Positions 43,995 through 52,910 of a stretch of 64,000 nucleotides of DNA are shown here, one piece after another. The translations under genes were made by a program, and so were the position numbers. Under the pieces are notes generated by a model that saw only the letters and a program-made list of their open reading frames with translations, was not told where the DNA came from and did not search any database. Where the stretch lies: the IMG/VR virus record IMGVR_UViG_2903405734_000002, positions 64,001 through 128,000 of that record. One strand, given 5' to 3'. Position 1 is the stretch's first letter; the number at the start of each line of letters is the position of its first letter. The stretch comes from a virus (lineage: Duplodnaviria > Heunggongvirae > Uroviricota > Caudoviricetes).

Positions 43995-44130
43995 ATTGGA
44001 AGTCTTTTTCCAATTGAGCAGATAGGGTCTCGTTTTCAACTGGGTTTTCTACACCATCTTGCTCTGGCATTAACCCCTGCTCTTTCCATTCATCATCGCT
44101 TTCAATATTCAATGCAACATCATGACTCAT
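43993..44130 (-). CDS. Unannotated 45-aa acidic protein MSHDVALNIESDDEWKEQGLMPEQDGVENPVENETLSAQLEKDFQ
   Basis: GGAG RBS 6 nt before ATG; stop lies at the bidirectional terminator; 13 D/E versus 2 K. Confidence 0.6.
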   Translation of the reverse strand: MSHDVALNIESDDEWKEQGLMPEQDGVENPVENETLSAQLEKDFQ

Positions 44131-44272
44131 TTTTTGCTCCAGATCACATTATGATGAATACATATTAGTTCAAAACTACCCATTTGGCAAGAAAATAGCA
44201 AATTGTTGACATAACTTTTTATGTTTGGTAGTGTTTTTGAGTTATTTATTAACTCTAATAAGAGGAAATGAG

Positions 44273-46372
44273 ATGAGTGATTTTTCTTTTGGAGATGGAC
44301 TTCCAGATGTCTTAACTGCCAATGGTGGTCATGAAATGCTTCAAGATTATCTTGATAACAACTCAATGATTTTTGATATCGTAAGGAAAATACTTCCAGC
44401 AGAAAAAAAGAAAACAACAAGAAAAAGACTTTCGCTAAAAGAAAGGGTTAAATCTGAACTAATAGATTTGATGTCAAAATACTCCATAAGAAAAAAAATA
44501 AATTTCTTTCTTAATGAAACGAGTGATTACTCTCGCTCACTCGAAGTATTCATAATGATGTCTGTAATGGAGACTCTTGGTTTAACTCCAGAGGAGATGG
44601 AAAACCCTATTATAGAGCTTTGCGATAAATACATATGGTTTAATCATATTGTAAGCGAGGCCGATGTTGAAAAAAGCAACTACATAGACTTCCATTGGAT
44701 TTTTAATTCTTTCGAATCCGTATTTGAGTTTATTGACTGCAATAAAAAAGCAGATAAAAAACTAACCGATTCAGAGTATGATTTAATAGCACTTGCCATA
44801 TTTGCATTTTCAAGCTGGAATGATTCAATACTTCCAGTTCTTGCTTTGATTGAAAAAGATAATGAGTTTGCGAGCAGATTTTCTTTTATTGGTGATTCTA
44901 TAGCTAGAGCAAGAAAAATAATAGACTTCTCCGGTCTAAGCGGTGTTTCAGATCTTGATTTTAAGCGAGTTACCGATAAGTACATCATAGAAAGATCTGT
45001 TGAAGACTTGCTTGGAATCATTGATGGCGATAAAAGCAAATCTCTTGGTGATATTCTTTTTATGCTTGAGACAAGCGGCAATATTGCTCCTATCTACTCA
45101 AGGAAGCTATTGGAAATACACAAGAAGGATGTTTGCGGTCTTGCCAATCATGGAATTGGAGAAATCGTTAGCTTTTATGAGGCTCACAAGAGCGTTCTTG
45201 AGGAGCCATTAAGAAATCAGAAAATAGATCCATTCCTGGCATTTAAGAAAAGTGAAGTTTCCAAGTTAATAGGAGGAATCTCTAATTTTCACGAGATGGA
45301 AGCCGCTATTAATTATACAGGCCGCGAGTATTTATTTATATATGACAACCTGAAAGAGCTATCCAGAATAAAAGATGAATTGACATCTATATCTGAAAAG
45401 AAAAAAGATCTTATGGCTAAGTCAGAGGATGGATTCCCTGACATGGATAAGATGAATAGCTTGTATTCATCATATCTGGAGTTAAGCCAGAGCTTCATAA
45501 AAGAGGCTACAAATCTATATCTAAAAACATACAGTATCGACAAATTCGAAGAGAAGCTTTGCGAAGCCAAAGAGCGACATCAAAAAAACGTAGATGAAAA
45601 AAACAATTTTATCTCCAATATGAGCAGGCAGCTTGGCGTTGATGACGTAGTTTTGACTACAAGTTCAGCTCATTCTGATGAAGATAAAAAAGAAGTCTCG
45701 CCAAAAAATGAAGGCAATGAAGACATGGTTCTTCTTAAGGAAGAATTACAAACTGTTTATCAGCATTGTGATGAGCTGGAGTCACAAATAAAAGAGATTG
45801 AAGAAAAGCTGAGAAATGAAGTCCAGAAAAATATTGTTTTGAGTGATGCAAATAGCAGGCTTAAGTCGTCACAAGCATCATCAGATGCGCTAGGGAGCGA
45901 AGAGGCAGAAGCCCTTAGAACGATTCTGATTTCACCATCTGATGCTACACCAGAGATGATTCTTGCCGCATATGGAGTGCTCTATAGAGATCGCCTGGTT
46001 GTCCTTCCAAGTGCATTTCGCTCGGCTTCTGGCTCATCTACCTTCCGGCAGTCTGCCCGCCTATCTAGGCTGATCGGCACTTTAGTGACAGAGTATCTGG
46101 ATGCTATAAAAGGCGGACAGCCTGACGCTCAAGCAAAAGCCATGTTTGGAGGAGCCTACTCAGCGAAAGAAAGCGAAACAGTAATTGGGAATCCAGAACT
46201 GAGATCATATCGTGAGTTTGAGGTAAACGGGGAAAAAACCCTTATGTTACAGCACCTTACAATTGGTGTTTCTAACTCTGCCTCAGATACAATTCGTGTT
46301 TACTTCAAAATTATTGATGGGGTTATTTACATTGGATACTGCGGCGAACACTTGCCTCTTAGGCAATCATAA
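44273..46372 (+). CDS. Large coiled-coil protein with conserved C-terminal alpha/beta domain (possibly RelE-like)
   Basis: GAGG RBS before ATG 44273; long coiled coil; C-terminal HL.IG......IR.YF......IYIGYCGEHLP. Confidence 0.75.
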   Translation: MSDFSFGDGLPDVLTANGGHEMLQDYLDNNSMIFDIVRKILPAEKKKTTRKRLSLKERVKSELIDLMSKYSIRKKINFFLNETSDYSRSLEVFIMMSVMETLGLTPEEMENPIIELCDKYIWFNHIVSEADVEKSNYIDFHWIFNSFESVFEFIDCNKKADKKLTDSEYDLIALAIFAFSSWNDSILPVLALIEKDNEFASRFSFIGDSIARARKIIDFSGLSGVSDLDFKRVTDKYIIERSVEDLLGIIDGDKSKSLGDILFMLETSGNIAPIYSRKLLEIHKKDVCGLANHGIGEIVSFYEAHKSVLEEPLRNQKIDPFLAFKKSEVSKLIGGISNFHEMEAAINYTGREYLFIYDNLKELSRIKDELTSISEKKKDLMAKSEDGFPDMDKMNSLYSSYLELSQSFIKEATNLYLKTYSIDKFEEKLCEAKERHQKNVDEKNNFISNMSRQLGVDDVVLTTSSAHSDEDKKEVSPKNEGNEDMVLLKEELQTVYQHCDELESQIKEIEEKLRNEVQKNIVLSDANSRLKSSQASSDALGSEEAEALRTILISPSDATPEMILAAYGVLYRDRLVVLPSAFRSASGSSTFRQSARLSRLIGTLVTEYLDAIKGGQPDAQAKAMFGGAYSAKESETVIGNPELRSYREFEVNGEKTLMLQHLTIGVSNSASDTIRVYFKIIDGVIYIGYCGEHLPLRQS

Positions 46373-46400
46373 GCACTAGATACCATTTTGGTATTTGCAT

Positions 46401-46429
46401 AAAGGCCCGCTTAACTAGCGGGCTTTTTT
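46401..46429 (+). terminator. Intrinsic terminator bounding the repeat array
   Basis: GCCCGC-TTAACTA-GCGGGC-TTTTTT, with an A run on the left. Confidence 0.8.
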
Positions 46430-46451
46430 AGAATTCCTCTCCAAGGGAATT

Positions 46452-47695
46452 GTGAAATGGAAACCTGACTCCAGCGAGCTCGATTGTCGGCTGACAACGA
46501 GGTGATCTGCGCCAGACCCCAGCAGGCCCGAACTGCTACAGGTAGAGTGAAATGGAATGCTGGCCCTGATTGGCAGCGATTGTCGGCTGACAACGGGGTG
46601 ATCTGCATCAGAGCATCCGCTGGCCGGAACGGCTACAGGTAGCGTGAAATGGAAATTCCGCCCTAACAAGCTCGATTGTCGGCTACAACGGGCGGATCTG
46701 CGCATGAGTGCCAGCAGGCAGGAATAGCTACAGGTATCGTGAAATGGAATGCTGGCCCTGACTGGCTGCGATTGTCGGCTGACAACGAGGAGATCTGCAC
46801 CAGAGCACCCGCTGGCCGGAACGGCTACAGGTAGCGTGAAATGGAATTTTGACCCTGGCAAACAGTGATTGTCGGCTGACAACGGGGTGATCTGCGCCAG
46901 ACCCCAGCAGGCCAGAACTGCTACAGGTATCGTGAAATGGAAATCTGGCCTCATCGAGCTCGATTGTCAGCTGACAACGAGGTGATCTGCACCAGAGAAC
47001 CAGCTGGCCGGAACGGCTACAGGTATCGTGAAATGGAATTTTGACCCTGGCAAACAGTGATTGTCGGCTGACAACGGGGTGATCTGCGCCAGACCCCAGC
47101 TGGCCGGAACTGCTACAGGTATCGTGAAATGGAAATCTGGCCTCATCGAGCTCGATTGTCAGCTGACAACGAGGTGATCTGCACCAGAGAACCAGCTGGC
47201 CGGAACTGCTATAGGTAGCGTGAAATGGAATACTGGCCCTAACTGGCAGCGATTGTCGGCTGACAACGGGGTGATCTGCGCCAGACCCCAGCTGGCCGGA
47301 ACTGCTACAGGTATCGTGAAATGGAATGCTGGCCCTGACTGGCTGCGATTGTCGGCTGACAACGGGGTGATCTGCACCAGAGAACCAGCTGGCCGGAACT
47401 GCTATAGGTAGCGTGAAATGGAATACTGGCCCTAACTGGCAGCGATTGTCGGCTGACAACGGGGTGATCTGCACCAGAGAACCAACTGGCCGGAACTGCT
47501 ATAGGTAGCGTGAAATGGAATACTGGCCCTAACTGACAACGAGGTGATCTGCACCAGAGAACCAGCTGGCCGGAACTGCTATAGGTAGCGTGAAATGGAA
47601 TACTGGCCCTAACTGGCAGCGATTGTCGGCTGACAACGGGGTGAACTGCGCCAGACCCCAGCAGGCCCGAACTGCTACAGGTATCGTAAAATGGA
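46452..47695. repeat. Tandem array of 13 ~96-bp units plus a partial 14th core, each with a TTGTC-N4-GACAA palindrome
   Basis: GTGAAATGGAA anchors at 46452, 46547, 46644, 46739, 46836, 46932, 47028, 47124, 47220, 47316, 47413, 47510 and 47590, plus a degenerate GTAAAATGGA at 47686. Confidence 0.98.
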
Positions 47696-47853
47696 GGACT
47701 AGCCTATTTAACCAGGAACCAACACAGTTATTATAACTAAAATTAACCCAACAAGACTCAGCTTTGGCTATCCATGGTGACATTTTGCTGTTATTATGTG
47801 CAAAATAAAGGTGACACAACACCACATTAATAAAAATAAATAAAGAGGTGCTT

Positions 47854-47976
47854 ATGAGTACAAAAAATGTATTTATTTATGCAATTGAAAAAACACTTAG
47901 CCTCAACACATGGCAAAAAATGAATGTTTTTTCTACTGCAATGAATAAAATATCAGAGAAAAGAGGCTTCTCATGA
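47854..47976 (+). CDS. Unannotated 40-aa ORF MSTKNVFIYAIEKTLSLNTWQKMNVFSTAMNKISEKRGFS
   Basis: GAGGTG RBS; its TGA overlaps the next gene's ATG (ATGA). Confidence 0.5.
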   Translation: MSTKNVFIYAIEKTLSLNTWQKMNVFSTAMNKISEKRGFS

Positions 47977-48518
47977 TTAGTACGTCAGCACTCAAAAAGT
48001 GCATGTACGTACTGCTTTTAATGATCGGATTTTCTTCATTTGAAGCATCCGCCATTGACATTAATAAGCCTAGACATCTGAGGCTATACAATACAAATAC
48101 TAAAGAATTTTTGAGTTCGGTTTATCTTTCTGATGGAGCATACAATACAAGAGAAATACTTAGAATTAGTGTTTTTCTTAGGGATTTCAGGCAAAACAAG
48201 GCTGTTTTAGCGGATAAAAAGCTACTCAATGCACTATGGGTAATTAATGAAGTAACTACAAACGGTAGGGGGATTATTAAAATTAACTCTGCTTATAGGA
48301 CAAGAGAGACTAATAAGCTACTTCAAAGAAAAGGCTACAAGGCAGCAGATAGAAGCATGCACATAAGGGGTAAAGCTATCGACTTTTCTATTACCGGAGT
48401 TAGTGCAAAAGAAATTTGGCAGGTTGCAACAAAGTTAAAGATTGGTGGTGTCGGTTATTATCCATCAAGTGGATTTATTCATATTGACACTGGTGATATC
48501 AGATACTGGAGGTATTAA
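47973..48518 (+). CDS. YcbK/MepK-type peptidase M15 (DUF882), exported
   Basis: Signal peptide; L.LYN..T.E, LRD.R, SAYR...TN..L, S.H..GKAID, GGVGYYP.SGFIHIDTG..RYW. Confidence 0.9.
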   Translation: MISTSALKKCMYVLLLMIGFSSFEASAIDINKPRHLRLYNTNTKEFLSSVYLSDGAYNTREILRISVFLRDFRQNKAVLADKKLLNALWVINEVTTNGRGIIKINSAYRTRETNKLLQRKGYKAADRSMHIRGKAIDFSITGVSAKEIWQVATKLKIGGVGYYPSSGFIHIDTGDIRYWRY

Positions 48519-48938
48519 TTGATAATTAAAATCAATGCTTTGTCAAAAGGCATTACAAGCATTCTTTTTGTAGCCAGCAAAAACAGGTTCCTTTTGTTGA
48601 AAAACGGATTCCTTGCTGCGTTTATGAATATTGATGATTTAGATAGCAAAAATATTTTAGTCGGCCTTTCCTCAAAATTCAGAGATGAGGCTGTTTTGAA
48701 TGAGTTGATCCTGCTTGTAAACAAAGAAATGGGCCTAAATATTCAGCTTGGAGAATGTCGCCTTGCCCCTGTTAGGCCGCTGTGCGAGCAGTCACTTTCA
48801 GAGCCAGTCAGTGTGGCTATAGATTCACTCTACGATCTGAATGTGGTTGAGGTTTCTGATTCTGGAATCCTTTTTGAAACAAGAGGTTTTCAGCTGCCAC
48901 TATCAAAAAATGACATAAATAACATGCACTTACTCTAA
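48519..48938 (+). CDS. Hypothetical protein (true start possibly ATG 48624)
   Basis: ORF fills the gap between the ycbK-like gene and lpxC on the same strand. Confidence 0.55.
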   Translation: MIIKINALSKGITSILFVASKNRFLLLKNGFLAAFMNIDDLDSKNILVGLSSKFRDEAVLNELILLVNKEMGLNIQLGECRLAPVRPLCEQSLSEPVSVAIDSLYDLNVVEVSDSGILFETRGFQLPLSKNDINNMHLL

Positions 48939-48947
48939 GGCTTTCAT

Positions 48948-49880
48948 ATGATAAGACAGAGAACCATTAGGAAGGAAATTTGTACAACAGGTGTCGGCCT
49001 TCACTCCGGCAACAGGGTTTATATGAATCTCAAGCCAGCACCAATAAATACTGGTGTTGTGTTCATAAGGAATGATCTGTCACCAAAAACTATCATCAAG
49101 GCAGATGCATCGTTGGTGCATGACACTCTTCTTTGCACCGCTCTAGTTGGAGATAACGGCGTCAGGGTGTCAACCATTGAACATTTGTCGGCGGCATTGA
49201 GCGCCCTTGGAATTGATAATATTTTTGTTGAGCTGGATTCATCAGAAGTTCCAGTAATGGATGGTAGTTCGCATCCTTTCCTTTATCTTTTGACCTCGGC
49301 AGGAATAAAAGAACAAAAGGCCCTTAAAAAATTCATCAAAATCAAAGAGACCGTTAGGGTTGAGGATGGTGATAAATGGGCAGAACTATCTCCGGCGATA
49401 TGGGGAAAACCTGGATTTAGGCTATCTCTTGAGATTGATTTTGATCAGCCTGCAATTTCAAGAACAAATCAGTCTGTATCGATAGAATTAACTGCCAATA
49501 ATTTTGCTAAAAACATCAGCAGAGCAAGAACATTTGGATTTATGAAAGACATTGAAATGCTCAGGGCAAAAAACCTAGCACTTGGTGGAACTCTTGATAA
49601 TGCAGTTGTAATTGATGATTATAAAGTCATCAATCCAGATGGCCTTAGATTTGATGATGAGTTTGTAAGGCATAAAATGCTTGATGCCATTGGTGACTTA
49701 TATATGAGTGGAAGCAGCATTATTGGCTCATTTAATGCATATAAAACTGGTCACTATCTAAACAACAAACTCATAAGATGCCTACTGGAGAATAAAACGG
49801 CATGGGAATATGTTGAATTTGGCGGCGGCGATGAATCAGGCGATATCTACTCTATTGAGAGCACTCTGATCCTTGCGTAA
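48948..49880 (+). CDS. lpxC: UDP-3-O-acyl-N-acetylglucosamine deacetylase
   Basis: [49 protein letters not shown]. Confidence 0.97.
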
Positions 49881-49928
49881 CCAATTAATTAATTATAAAA
49901 TAATTGAACACTCAAGACTGGGCTTTTT

Positions 49929-50870
49929 ATGAAAAAAACTGTTGTAATTGTCGATACCAATAACTTGCTGTATCGCATGTTTCACACTCAGCCACCTAGA
50001 ATTTTTAAGGGGCAGCGTGTTGAGTCTATGAAGGCATCCGTTTCTGCCATCATGAGGCTTTCAGAGTCAACTCCAGTCGGCAAGCCCGAAAAGGTTGTGG
50101 CTGTTTTCGATGCGCCAGGTAAAACATTTCGAGATGAGATGTTTGTTGATTACAAGACAAACAGAAAAGGAATGCCTGACGAGCTTAAGCAGCAAGAATC
50201 GAGCTTGAAAGAAGTTCTGTCGGCAATTGGGGTTCCTGTGATCTCGAAGGAAGGGGTTGAGGCTGATGATGCAATTGGTATGCTGGCAGCACACTTCAAC
50301 AGCAAGGGCTACTTTGTTTTAATCTTTTCAAATGATAAAGATATCCTTCAATTGGTGTCGGATGATGTTGCGGTTATGAATCCGTCTGTAAAAACGCTGA
50401 TGGATTCAGCAGCTGTTGTTGAAAAGCTAGGTGTTCCACCATCACTGGTTGTCGATTTTCTCGCGCTAAAGGGGGATGCAGCCGATAACATTCCTGGTGT
50501 TGATGGTGTTGGAGACAAAACGGCGGCAAAGCTGTTGAACACTTACGGTTCACTGCAAAACCTGGTGGAAAACGCAGAAAAAATCAAAGGCGTGATCGGA
50601 ACAAGGATTTCTGAGTTTAAAGAGCAATCTGTGGTCAATATGCTTCTTTGTGCTATTAAGAGGGATCCGCTAGGACTGACTAATGCAGAAATCGAAGAAG
50701 TAGAAAACAGCAAAGGAAGCATGTCGGCATGTAAAGCCATGAGCCAGCGTTATGGCATAGATGTAAAGCCGAAGGCGGAGAGCACAGAACCGGATCATGT
50801 TGTGGCTGAAAAGCCAGTATCAAAAAAAGAGTCTCCAGATAAAGAACAGGGTCAAATGTCTCTTTTTTGA
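49929..50870 (+). CDS. Standalone 5'-3' exonuclease/flap endonuclease (Pol I N-terminal-like)
   Basis: IVD..N..YR, VFDA..KTFR, YK.NR, EADD.IG, DKD..QL, L.GD..DNIPGV.G.G.KTA..LL..YGSL; ends QMSLF. Confidence 0.93.
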   Translation: MKKTVVIVDTNNLLYRMFHTQPPRIFKGQRVESMKASVSAIMRLSESTPVGKPEKVVAVFDAPGKTFRDEMFVDYKTNRKGMPDELKQQESSLKEVLSAIGVPVISKEGVEADDAIGMLAAHFNSKGYFVLIFSNDKDILQLVSDDVAVMNPSVKTLMDSAAVVEKLGVPPSLVVDFLALKGDAADNIPGVDGVGDKTAAKLLNTYGSLQNLVENAEKIKGVIGTRISEFKEQSVVNMLLCAIKRDPLGLTNAEIEEVENSKGSMSACKAMSQRYGIDVKPKAESTEPDHVVAEKPVSKKESPDKEQGQMSLF

Positions 50871-52463: not shown

Positions 52464-52910
52464 ATGAATATGAGCAACACTGAAATGCAATTCGAAAAAA
52501 CCCTGCTGAACCAACGTAGCCTTCGTGCAGCTGTTCGACCGCTGACTATCGATCAGATCGATGAAGCCATCGAAAAATTGACTGCTGTTCGCGCAGAGCG
52601 ATATGAAGCAGAGAAAGAGCAGATCGAAGCGGAAAAAGCTCGCCAAGCAAAACTGGCTGAATTCCGTGAGCTGATGAAGGAAGAAGGTATTAATCCGGCA
52701 GATCTGATCGCTGGTGTAGAAACCACTACCACCACCAAGCAAAAAGCAAAACGCGCTCCGCGCCCTGCAAAGTATGAATACCTGAATGCAGATGGCGAGC
52801 GCATGACCTGGACTGGTCAGGGCCGTCAGCCTCGCGCAATTGCCGATGCTATCGCCGAAGGCTCCAAAACCCTGGAAGACTTCGAGATCAAGGCTGCTGC
52901 TGCCGAGTGA
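52464..52910 (+). CDS. hns: H-NS family nucleoid-structuring protein
   Basis: LLN.RSLRAA, KRAPRPAKY.Y, TWTGQGR.P; GAGG RBS (start may be ATG 52470). Confidence 0.96.
   Translation: MNMSNTEMQFEKTLLNQRSLRAAVRPLTIDQIDEAIEKLTAVRAERYEAEKEQIEAEKARQAKLAEFRELMKEEGINPADLIAGVETTTTTKQKAKRAPRPAKYEYLNADGERMTWTGQGRQPRAIADAIAEGSKTLEDFEIKAAAAE

Follow-up and report, generated by a model that had tools for sequence, protein, structure and literature searches.

Several described systems are built of tandem repeats. The sopC site of plasmid F comprises 12 repeats of 43 bp in tandem, and SopB binds the 16-bp inverted repeat that each of them holds; iterons are 17–22 bp long; attC arrays, e.g. the Vibrio cholerae repeats, combine R''/L''–L'/R' inverted symmetry with an IntI integrase; the units of known type III antitoxins measure 34–46 nt. 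In the case of ToxI, units of 36 nt are bracketed by a promoter and a terminator, immediately upstream of the gene for the endoribonuclease ToxN, and phage TE carries pseudo-ToxI arrays that mimic ToxI (PMC3475682). Here we describe an array of 13 direct, head-to-tail non-coding units of ~96 bp (array 1, 46452–47685, + strand) found in a 64,000-nucleotide window, i.e. bases 64001–128000 of the 215,275-bp IMG/VR record IMGVR_UViG_2903405734_000002, which belongs to a giant low-GC Aeromonas element. The array is a member of an undescribed, Aeromonas-restricted family of ~96-bp repeats, for which we found no published description. The conserved cores and the unit length of this family are under constraint, and we tentatively read its arrays as docking sites for a DNA-binding protein.

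An initial annotation of the window, made from the nucleotide sequence alone, had concluded that the array matches no class that can be named. This conclusion holds: the array lacks defining features of each class considered, and no description of its core sequences was found in the literature searched. As in CRISPR, conserved and variable segments alternate at a fixed period; by contrast with CRISPR, the variable segments are not unique spacers but fall into a few homologous families across units, arrays and species, each period holds two conserved boxes, and neither Cas1 (in the 215-kb record) nor a PADLOC Cas match (among the neighbouring genes) was found. The attC arrays likewise have repeats of about 100 bp with conserved ends, and genes are sometimes present between the boxes of our family (a 91-aa gene and a 7.5-kb cassette, described below). 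The units studied here, however, directly abut, are mostly empty and are direct repeats whose sole symmetry is a central 14–16-bp palindrome, and the tyrosine recombinase of the window scores 14 bits against the integrase_gron model for IntI, the cut-off of which is 265.

Unit structure and constraint across the repeat family

When array 1 is split at GTGAAATGGAA, which opens each of the 13 units, the unit lengths are, in order, 95, 97, 95, 97, 96, 96, 96, 96, 96, 97, 97, 80 and 96 bp, exactly as initially annotated. Tandem Repeats Finder returned a period of 97 (11 copies, 82% matches) together with a higher-order period of 192 (6.4 copies, 88% matches), and unit pairs inside the array are 94–98% identical. 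Every unit boundary is bridged by an asymmetric junction box, GGTAkC-GTGAAATGGAA (for example at 46638–46654, + strand). Each unit contains at most one copy of a 14-bp palindrome, TTGTC(A/G)GCTGACAA, which has no strand and is present in 11 copies between 46484 and 47636 (starting at 46484, 46580, 46772, 46869, 46964, 47061, 47156, 47253, 47349, 47446 and 47623); two of these, at 46964 and 47156, are perfect. It is thus kept by 11 of the 13 units, with a spacing of 95–97 bp. The two exceptions are unit 3 (46644–46738, + strand), whose palindrome is damaged by a 1-nt deletion (GGCT-ACAAC), and the 80-bp unit 12 (47510–47589, + strand), in which a deletion of ~17 bp has removed the end of spacer A along with the left half of the palindrome. 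A terminal, degenerate or partial junction box, GTAAAATGGAGGA (47686–47698, + strand), closes the array.

The boundaries of the array also agree with the initial annotation. On the left, the intrinsic terminator of a 715-aa gene (46401–46429, + strand; 11-bp GC-rich stem with a U run behind it, –17.6 kcal/mol, z –4.1) ends 22 bp before the first unit; its hairpin is also caught by the Rfam Trp_leader alignment. On the right lies an AT-rich intergenic flank (47699–47853, no strand, 25–35% GC), which contains the one sigma-70-like match in this region and precedes a 40-aa open reading frame (ORF) and an M15 peptidase gene. As had been proposed, the array does not code for protein: each array of the family mixes units of 95, 96, 97 and 98 bp, stop codons fall within the conserved boxes on the + strand, and the long minus-strand ORFs switch register from unit to unit.

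Constraint was assessed on an alignment of 43 units and on a logo of 106 distinct full-length units from 12 arrays, which represent at least six Aeromonas species and the giant element. Three segments are near-invariant in both data sets: TAyMGGTAkC-GTGAAATGGAA, which is the extended junction box, yGATTGTC(A/G)GCTGACAAC, which contains the palindrome, and TGATC. The GTGAA.TG part of the junction box is invariant in the 43 aligned units, and the box as a whole is near-invariant in the 106 distinct units. The two boxes reach about 2 bits per position in the logo, as compared with less than 1 bit for spacer A (19–21 nt) and most of spacer B (23–25 nt). The conservation of three cores that had been noticed in array 1 therefore stands, with two amendments: the first and last cores form a single contiguous junction box, and the third, GRGGTGATCTGC, is moderately conserved family-wide, its conserved part being TGATC. 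The Shine-Dalgarno-like string GGTGATC was discarded as a conserved feature, as it is found in 41 of the 106 units only.

The palindrome (14 bp when perfect, 16 bp when near-perfect matches are included) is kept in 98 of the 106 units, being perfect in 41 and carrying a central G in 57. It changes at its centre only and never covaries, as expected for the binding site of a dimer. Unit length is held, as the initial annotation had suggested from array 1: 181 of the 188 units of the family measure 95–98 bp despite insertions and deletions in the spacers. The palindromes are accordingly spaced by 95–98 bp, or ~9.1 helical turns, which places successive copies on roughly the same face of the helix. 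Finally, the insertions present in the family (the 91-aa gene, the 7.5-kb defence cassette with brxR, and insertion sequence (IS) elements) hit the spacers or the unit joins and spare the boxes.

Distribution of the family and turnover of its arrays

Of 185,579 species genomes scanned for the exact pattern, only those of Aeromonas bivalvium, A. allosaccharophila and A. australiensis contained the unit. Three of the 46 Aeromonas species genomes carry it, at one locus each. No match was obtained in the phage collection, nor among viral contigs, whether these were searched with the pattern or with two neighbouring proteins. The comparison with plasmids and phages called for by the initial annotation thus produced a single PLSDB match, to the 'plasmid' NZ_AP026896.1 (L008) of Aeromonas caviae (4.94 Mb), which carries dnaA-dnaN-gyrB and is evidently a chromosome mislabelled as a plasmid; its 22-unit array lies between two identical DDE transposase genes. 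The boxes themselves are confined to the arrays: in the 46 Aeromonas genomes, the 16-bp palindrome and the 17-bp junction box are both absent outside the array loci, and both are likewise absent from the 215-kb record outside its two arrays, where palindrome copies with up to two mismatches do not exceed chance.

The chromosomal arrays, which are present in some Aeromonas only, comprise 8–45 units of 95–98 bp (45 at locus L022). We traced their context via the 91-aa ORF that always adjoins them, into longer contigs and one complete genome. The gene order of these islands is consistent: a relaxase gene, an H-NS-like gene, a variable defence-like cassette, brxR (WYL), the 91-aa gene and the array, followed in two loci (L012 and L024), about 200 bp past the array, by tRNA-Arg(CCU) and chromosomal genes. 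The 91-aa gene itself sits in the spacer A of a unit, between a GA(G/T)AAATGGAA box and an AATTGTC(A/G)GCTGACAAC box. Two strains have a solo unit with a perfect 16-bp palindrome, GTTGTCAGCTGACAAC, 7.5 kb further upstream, so that the cassette and brxR occupy the position of a spacer B. The best chromosomal matches of the element units are 84–91% identical, and a 77-bp unit type of the element's second array (see below) is 94% identical to one in A. bivalvium. The unit number could serve as a strain marker. As a side observation, in two species an IS3-family element is truncated precisely at a junction box, so that it lacks part of its left end and first codons (L010:1255–1385 and L012:430–545), which indicates either recombination at the boxes or repeated deletion there.

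The 215-kb record is probably a fragment of a larger element, since a collinear relative lies on a 536-kb contig; absences from the record consequently carry limited weight. It contains no match for a capsid, VirB4, PF03432 relaxase, ParA (AAA_31, CbiA), ParB_N, reverse transcriptase, Cas1 or CsrA, which extends to the entire fragment the earlier statement that cas, par and reverse transcriptase genes are missing from the window (Rep families were not part of this search). A second, more diverged array (array 2, record 214,820–215,275, corresponding to L006:1169–1619) with units of 96, 68, 97, 77 and 96 bp is preceded by a terminator hairpin and is cut short by the end of the record. The break point is shared by an independent 80-kb assembly (L050), and both assemblies seem to end there because of the repeat. 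More generally, arrays of this kind, which span 1–4 kb, break short-read assemblies of Aeromonas and of the element at a reproducible place. The independent assembly has the same flanks and the same first three units of array 2, while units 4–5 differ by 6.4% (versus 0.3–0.4% in the flanks) and keep their boxes. The right junction of array 1 is shared by at least five independent samples, whose contigs break in the last units. Spacers and unit order thus vary faster than the flanks between samples.

The distant relative (L032, metagenome contig RCUT01000003.1, 535,803 bp) shares ten collinear genes with the element, at 33–77% amino-acid identity, in a stretch that includes NadE, an ArdC-like protein, a homologue of the 715-aa protein, the M15 peptidase, LpxC, an exonuclease, an integrase and H-NS. 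Its size suggests that the element family reaches about 0.5 Mb. It has no array at the position of array 1. Given this absence, the retention of the arrays in independent samples and the faster change of their units, the arrays were therefore acquired in an Aeromonas-associated lineage, retained there, and turn over by unit exchange. The look at synteny and unit number that had been recommended accordingly gave a divided result, with a consistent order in the chromosomes, where the number of units varies, and an arrayless relative of the element.

Such turnover raises the possibility that the repeats are a selfish or near-neutral satellite, which grows by unequal crossing-over, spreads by recombination between Aeromonas replicons, and keeps its boxes for its own propagation or by ancestry, the element copies being mere passengers. 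The sporadic distribution across the 46 species genomes, the wide range of unit numbers and the higher-order repeats fit this explanation, as do the ragged array ends, which have no fixed boundary, the IS elements inserted into some arrays and the shuffling of unit order between samples. The base composition of array 1 also suits it: the array has a host-like GC content of 56% (range 52–57%) within DNA of ~40% GC (31–45% in the flanks), and the collinear relative has no array. We nevertheless regard a satellite as rather unlikely. The position-specific conservation across species and across two diverged array subtypes, extending to the solo unit with its perfect 16-bp palindrome, would not be expected from neutral-satellite homogenisation; moreover, unit length stays at 95–98 bp while the spacers gain and lose nucleotides, and both arrays are kept in every independent sample of the element that could be examined. 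The initial annotation had named two observations that would point to a neutral minisatellite. One of them, relatives that lack the array, was made with the collinear relative; the other, a uniform drift that leaves no core conserved, is clearly contradicted by the data.

Candidate docking sites for a DNA-binding protein

Constrained boxes, a palindrome that changes at its centre only, a fixed helical spacing, the lack of RNA structure (see below) and the terminators upstream of the element arrays together lead us to propose, tentatively, that the array is a DNA docking array, for which a putative binding factor would be shared or competed for by the island and the element. The retention of both arrays in the independent samples is a further argument for this proposal. 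The array would act as DNA, providing a multivalent platform on which a dimeric, sequence-specific protein could assemble cooperatively, and a second factor might perhaps bind the junction box TAyMGGTAkC-GTGAAATGGAA. The binding protein would be encoded away from the array, either at another place in the host or on the unsequenced remainder of the element. As the boxes occur in these arrays only, and as element and island share almost no genes, we infer that one common trans-acting factor would be shared or competed for, by titration or by sharing of cis sites. The protein-binding platform put forward in the initial annotation is therefore still the best reading; its more specific version as a centromere, iteron or incompatibility locus is weakened by the comparison below. 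If the arrays are docking sites, they would constitute an undescribed, genus-restricted cis-element that links a defence hotspot and a giant element with almost no genes in common, and they would point to a new DNA-binding factor, possibly involved in decoy or titration in a conflict between mobile elements.

Among described systems, the array would appear to work most like docking arrays of the sopC type. Both are non-coding head-to-tail arrays of a large element, in which each unit combines one palindrome of parS size with variable filler and a constrained length, and tandem palindromes of 14–16 bp, typical of ParB/SopB sites, are present in 11 of the 13 units of array 1 and 98 of 106 units family-wide. 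They differ in that the 96-bp unit has a second, asymmetric box, that the family is also found in chromosomes, beside a tRNA gene, that no parAB or sopAB genes were detected next to the array or in the 215-kb fragment, and that a relative of the element has no array. A possible likeness of the palindrome to the parS sites of Burkholderia secondary replicons, for which the literature searched gave no confirmation, was set aside. A comparison by eye with consensus sequences for Chi, matS, SlmA, Tus/Ter, IHF and P1 boxA revealed no convincing likeness either.

These observations bear on the possibility that array 1 is the element's own cis site, i.e. a sopC-like centromere or an iteron-type origin whose Par or Rep proteins are encoded in the unsequenced remainder. 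The element is large and presumably of low copy number, the tandem units carry one parS-sized palindrome each, an AT-rich stretch follows array 1, and the record is only a fragment, the contig of the relative being 536 kb long. The cumulative GC skew of the record has a broad maximum at ~116 kb, near array 1 and the integrase gene, and a minimum at ~209 kb, before array 2; these extremes are suggestive of replication landmarks, in a profile that is noisy and comes from an incomplete replicon. On the other hand, the search for parAB genes recommended at the outset yielded, over the 215 kb, no match to ParB_N, AAA_31 or CbiA (the limit concerning Rep families, given above, applies), and nothing par-like lies beside either array, the immediate neighbours of array 1 being the 715-aa protein and the M15 peptidase. 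The relative with the same ten genes lacks the array at this position, and the same arrays reside in chromosomes, beside a tRNA gene, a setting in which neither a centromere nor an origin is of evident use. Units of 96 bp far exceed the size of iterons, no Rep-like domain was recognized in the neighbouring proteins, and no good DnaA box was seen by eye in the AT-rich flank. We consequently find a centromere or an origin very unlikely.

Several observations weigh against the docking proposal. To begin with, no binding protein was found, and none is encoded beside the array. The one gene that always adjoins the chromosomal arrays, the 91-aa gene, is found in Aeromonas only (L009:5795–6067, minus strand, L027:10001–10276 and homologues) and is 85–93% conserved between species. 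A profile of remote homologues identifies its product as a derived member of a family of ~100-aa XRE/HTH_3/HTH_37 (HigA-like) proteins, and a gene for a HigB toxin lies two genes upstream of that for a 51%-identical homologue. The 91-aa protein has, however, lost nine residues inside the helix-turn-helix (HTH) and matches no HTH model; in view of this deletion, and of a poor single-sequence AlphaFold model (pLDDT 60), it was not retained as a supported palindrome binder. It has no match in PDB or NCBIfam. An operator array for BrxR was rejected as well, the brxR promoter having no copy of the palindrome. The same applies to a host regulon: with no box elsewhere in the record or in any of the 46 Aeromonas genomes, the factor cannot be traced through a known regulon. 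The element encodes no homologue of the 91-aa or BrxR proteins. Furthermore, the collinear relative has a 265-bp spacer at the position of array 1, which makes the array dispensable for that element family, and the host-like GC content may mean that the array was simply picked up from a host array. Lastly, three features would suit an RNA equally well: all 12 arrays run in the direction of the gene upstream of them, the chromosomal loci have no terminator between the 91-aa gene and the array, and the + strand of array 1, which is that of the upstream gene, is the purine-richer one (G>C, A>T).

These three features are also the first arguments for a repeat RNA, i.e. a + strand transcript that would resemble a type III antitoxin or serve as a sponge, and would be cut at the A/U-rich junction box, the element copies mimicking the RNA of the island. 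The position of the chromosomal array, directly behind brxR in a defence hotspot, is compatible with this explanation, and an invading element that copies a host repeat-RNA array has a precedent (PMC3475682). Indeed, the present family shares with ToxI and pseudo-ToxI the combination of tandem non-coding repeats at a host defence locus and a look-alike array on an invading element. It differs from ToxI by its 96-nt units and by the lack of a toxin partner gene, of a promoter and of an RNA fold signal.

The folding analyses account for the last of these differences. Single units, on either strand, folded like shuffled sequences (z –1.5 to +0.6). RNAalifold, applied to the 43 units, returned only the palindrome hairpin (5–7 bp), which never covaried; a candidate outer helix (CCYC with GRGG) was paired in 71–75% of the units, with no significant covariation in either register. 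Rfam gave no match for the array. The multi-unit structured RNA that the initial annotation had offered as an alternative is therefore not borne out, an invariant 5-bp hairpin being all that is left of it. Transcription signals were equally scarce: the units contain no sigma-70-like match, there is no promoter before them, and strong terminators precede both element arrays. Four metatranscriptome runs from three studies, compared with positions 44000–50000, did contain array-like contigs; in one run 48 short contigs all fell on the array, and in the others a few contigs covered the array and its flanks at similar depth, all of these being contigs only, which carry no strand or end information and from which transcription cannot be read, for a multi-copy target and with possible DNA carry-over.

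The gene layout does not correspond to that of type III toxin–antitoxin systems either, since array 1 is preceded by a terminator and followed by the 40-aa ORF and the M15 gene, and PADLOC reported no type III match. No partner of the ToxN, CptN or AbiE type was found, and the units are much longer than the 34–46 nt of known type III antitoxins. A CsrA sponge was discarded, as the 215-kb record has no CsrA and the density of GGA is low. With no conserved structure or covariation over 43–106 units, we consider a repeat RNA unlikely.

Whether the sites are used as DNA or as RNA, the presence of look-alike arrays on the two sides could also reflect a titration conflict, in which the array of the BrxR-governed hotspot and those of the element compete for one factor. 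The chromosomal array, with up to 45 units, might be a decoy of the incompatibility type, by which the element is destabilised or silenced; alternatively, the element arrays might be the decoy and disarm a function of the island. We consider such a conflict distinctly improbable; were it to exist, it would be a DNA-level (or 96-nt RNA) counterpart of pseudo-ToxI mimicry.

Genes adjoining the two element arrays

The genes upstream of the two element arrays are unrelated to each other and encode a 715-aa and a 536-aa protein, respectively. The 715-aa protein (44225–46372, + strand) belongs to no Pfam family and shows a weak PADLOC match to NsnC at its C-terminus. Megaplasmids of Pseudomonas, Vibrio and Klebsiella share its C-terminal ~210 aa, and its tail (IYIGYCGEHL) may resemble RelE/YafQ-type toxins. 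A 36%-identical homologue is present in the collinear relative, without an array; the gene is thus not array-dependent. The 536-aa protein, encoded directly upstream of array 2 (L048:12987–14597, record 212987–214597), combines a coiled-coil tail and a long (PAA)n linker with weak matches, two or three in number, to winged-helix domains. The length of the linker differs between samples, giving proteins of 536 or 567 aa. From these predicted domains it is a possible candidate for a DNA-binding neighbour of array 2.

Downstream of array 1, the M15 (DUF882) peptidase gene (47973–48518, + strand), which is collinear in the relative, is followed by genes for LpxC, a 5'-3' exonuclease, a tyrosine recombinase and an H-NS-like protein. 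The H-NS-like gene (52464–52910, + strand) is 50% identical to those of the array-bearing islands, and its product is the sole protein common to the element and the Aeromonas islands. Further along the record (200001–212721, L048) lie genes for RecJ, both ribonucleotide reductase subunits, an SNase-like nuclease and a RecD2-type helicase. As a DNA-metabolism set this is more in keeping with very large phages or phage-like elements than with a plasmid, where it is unusual.

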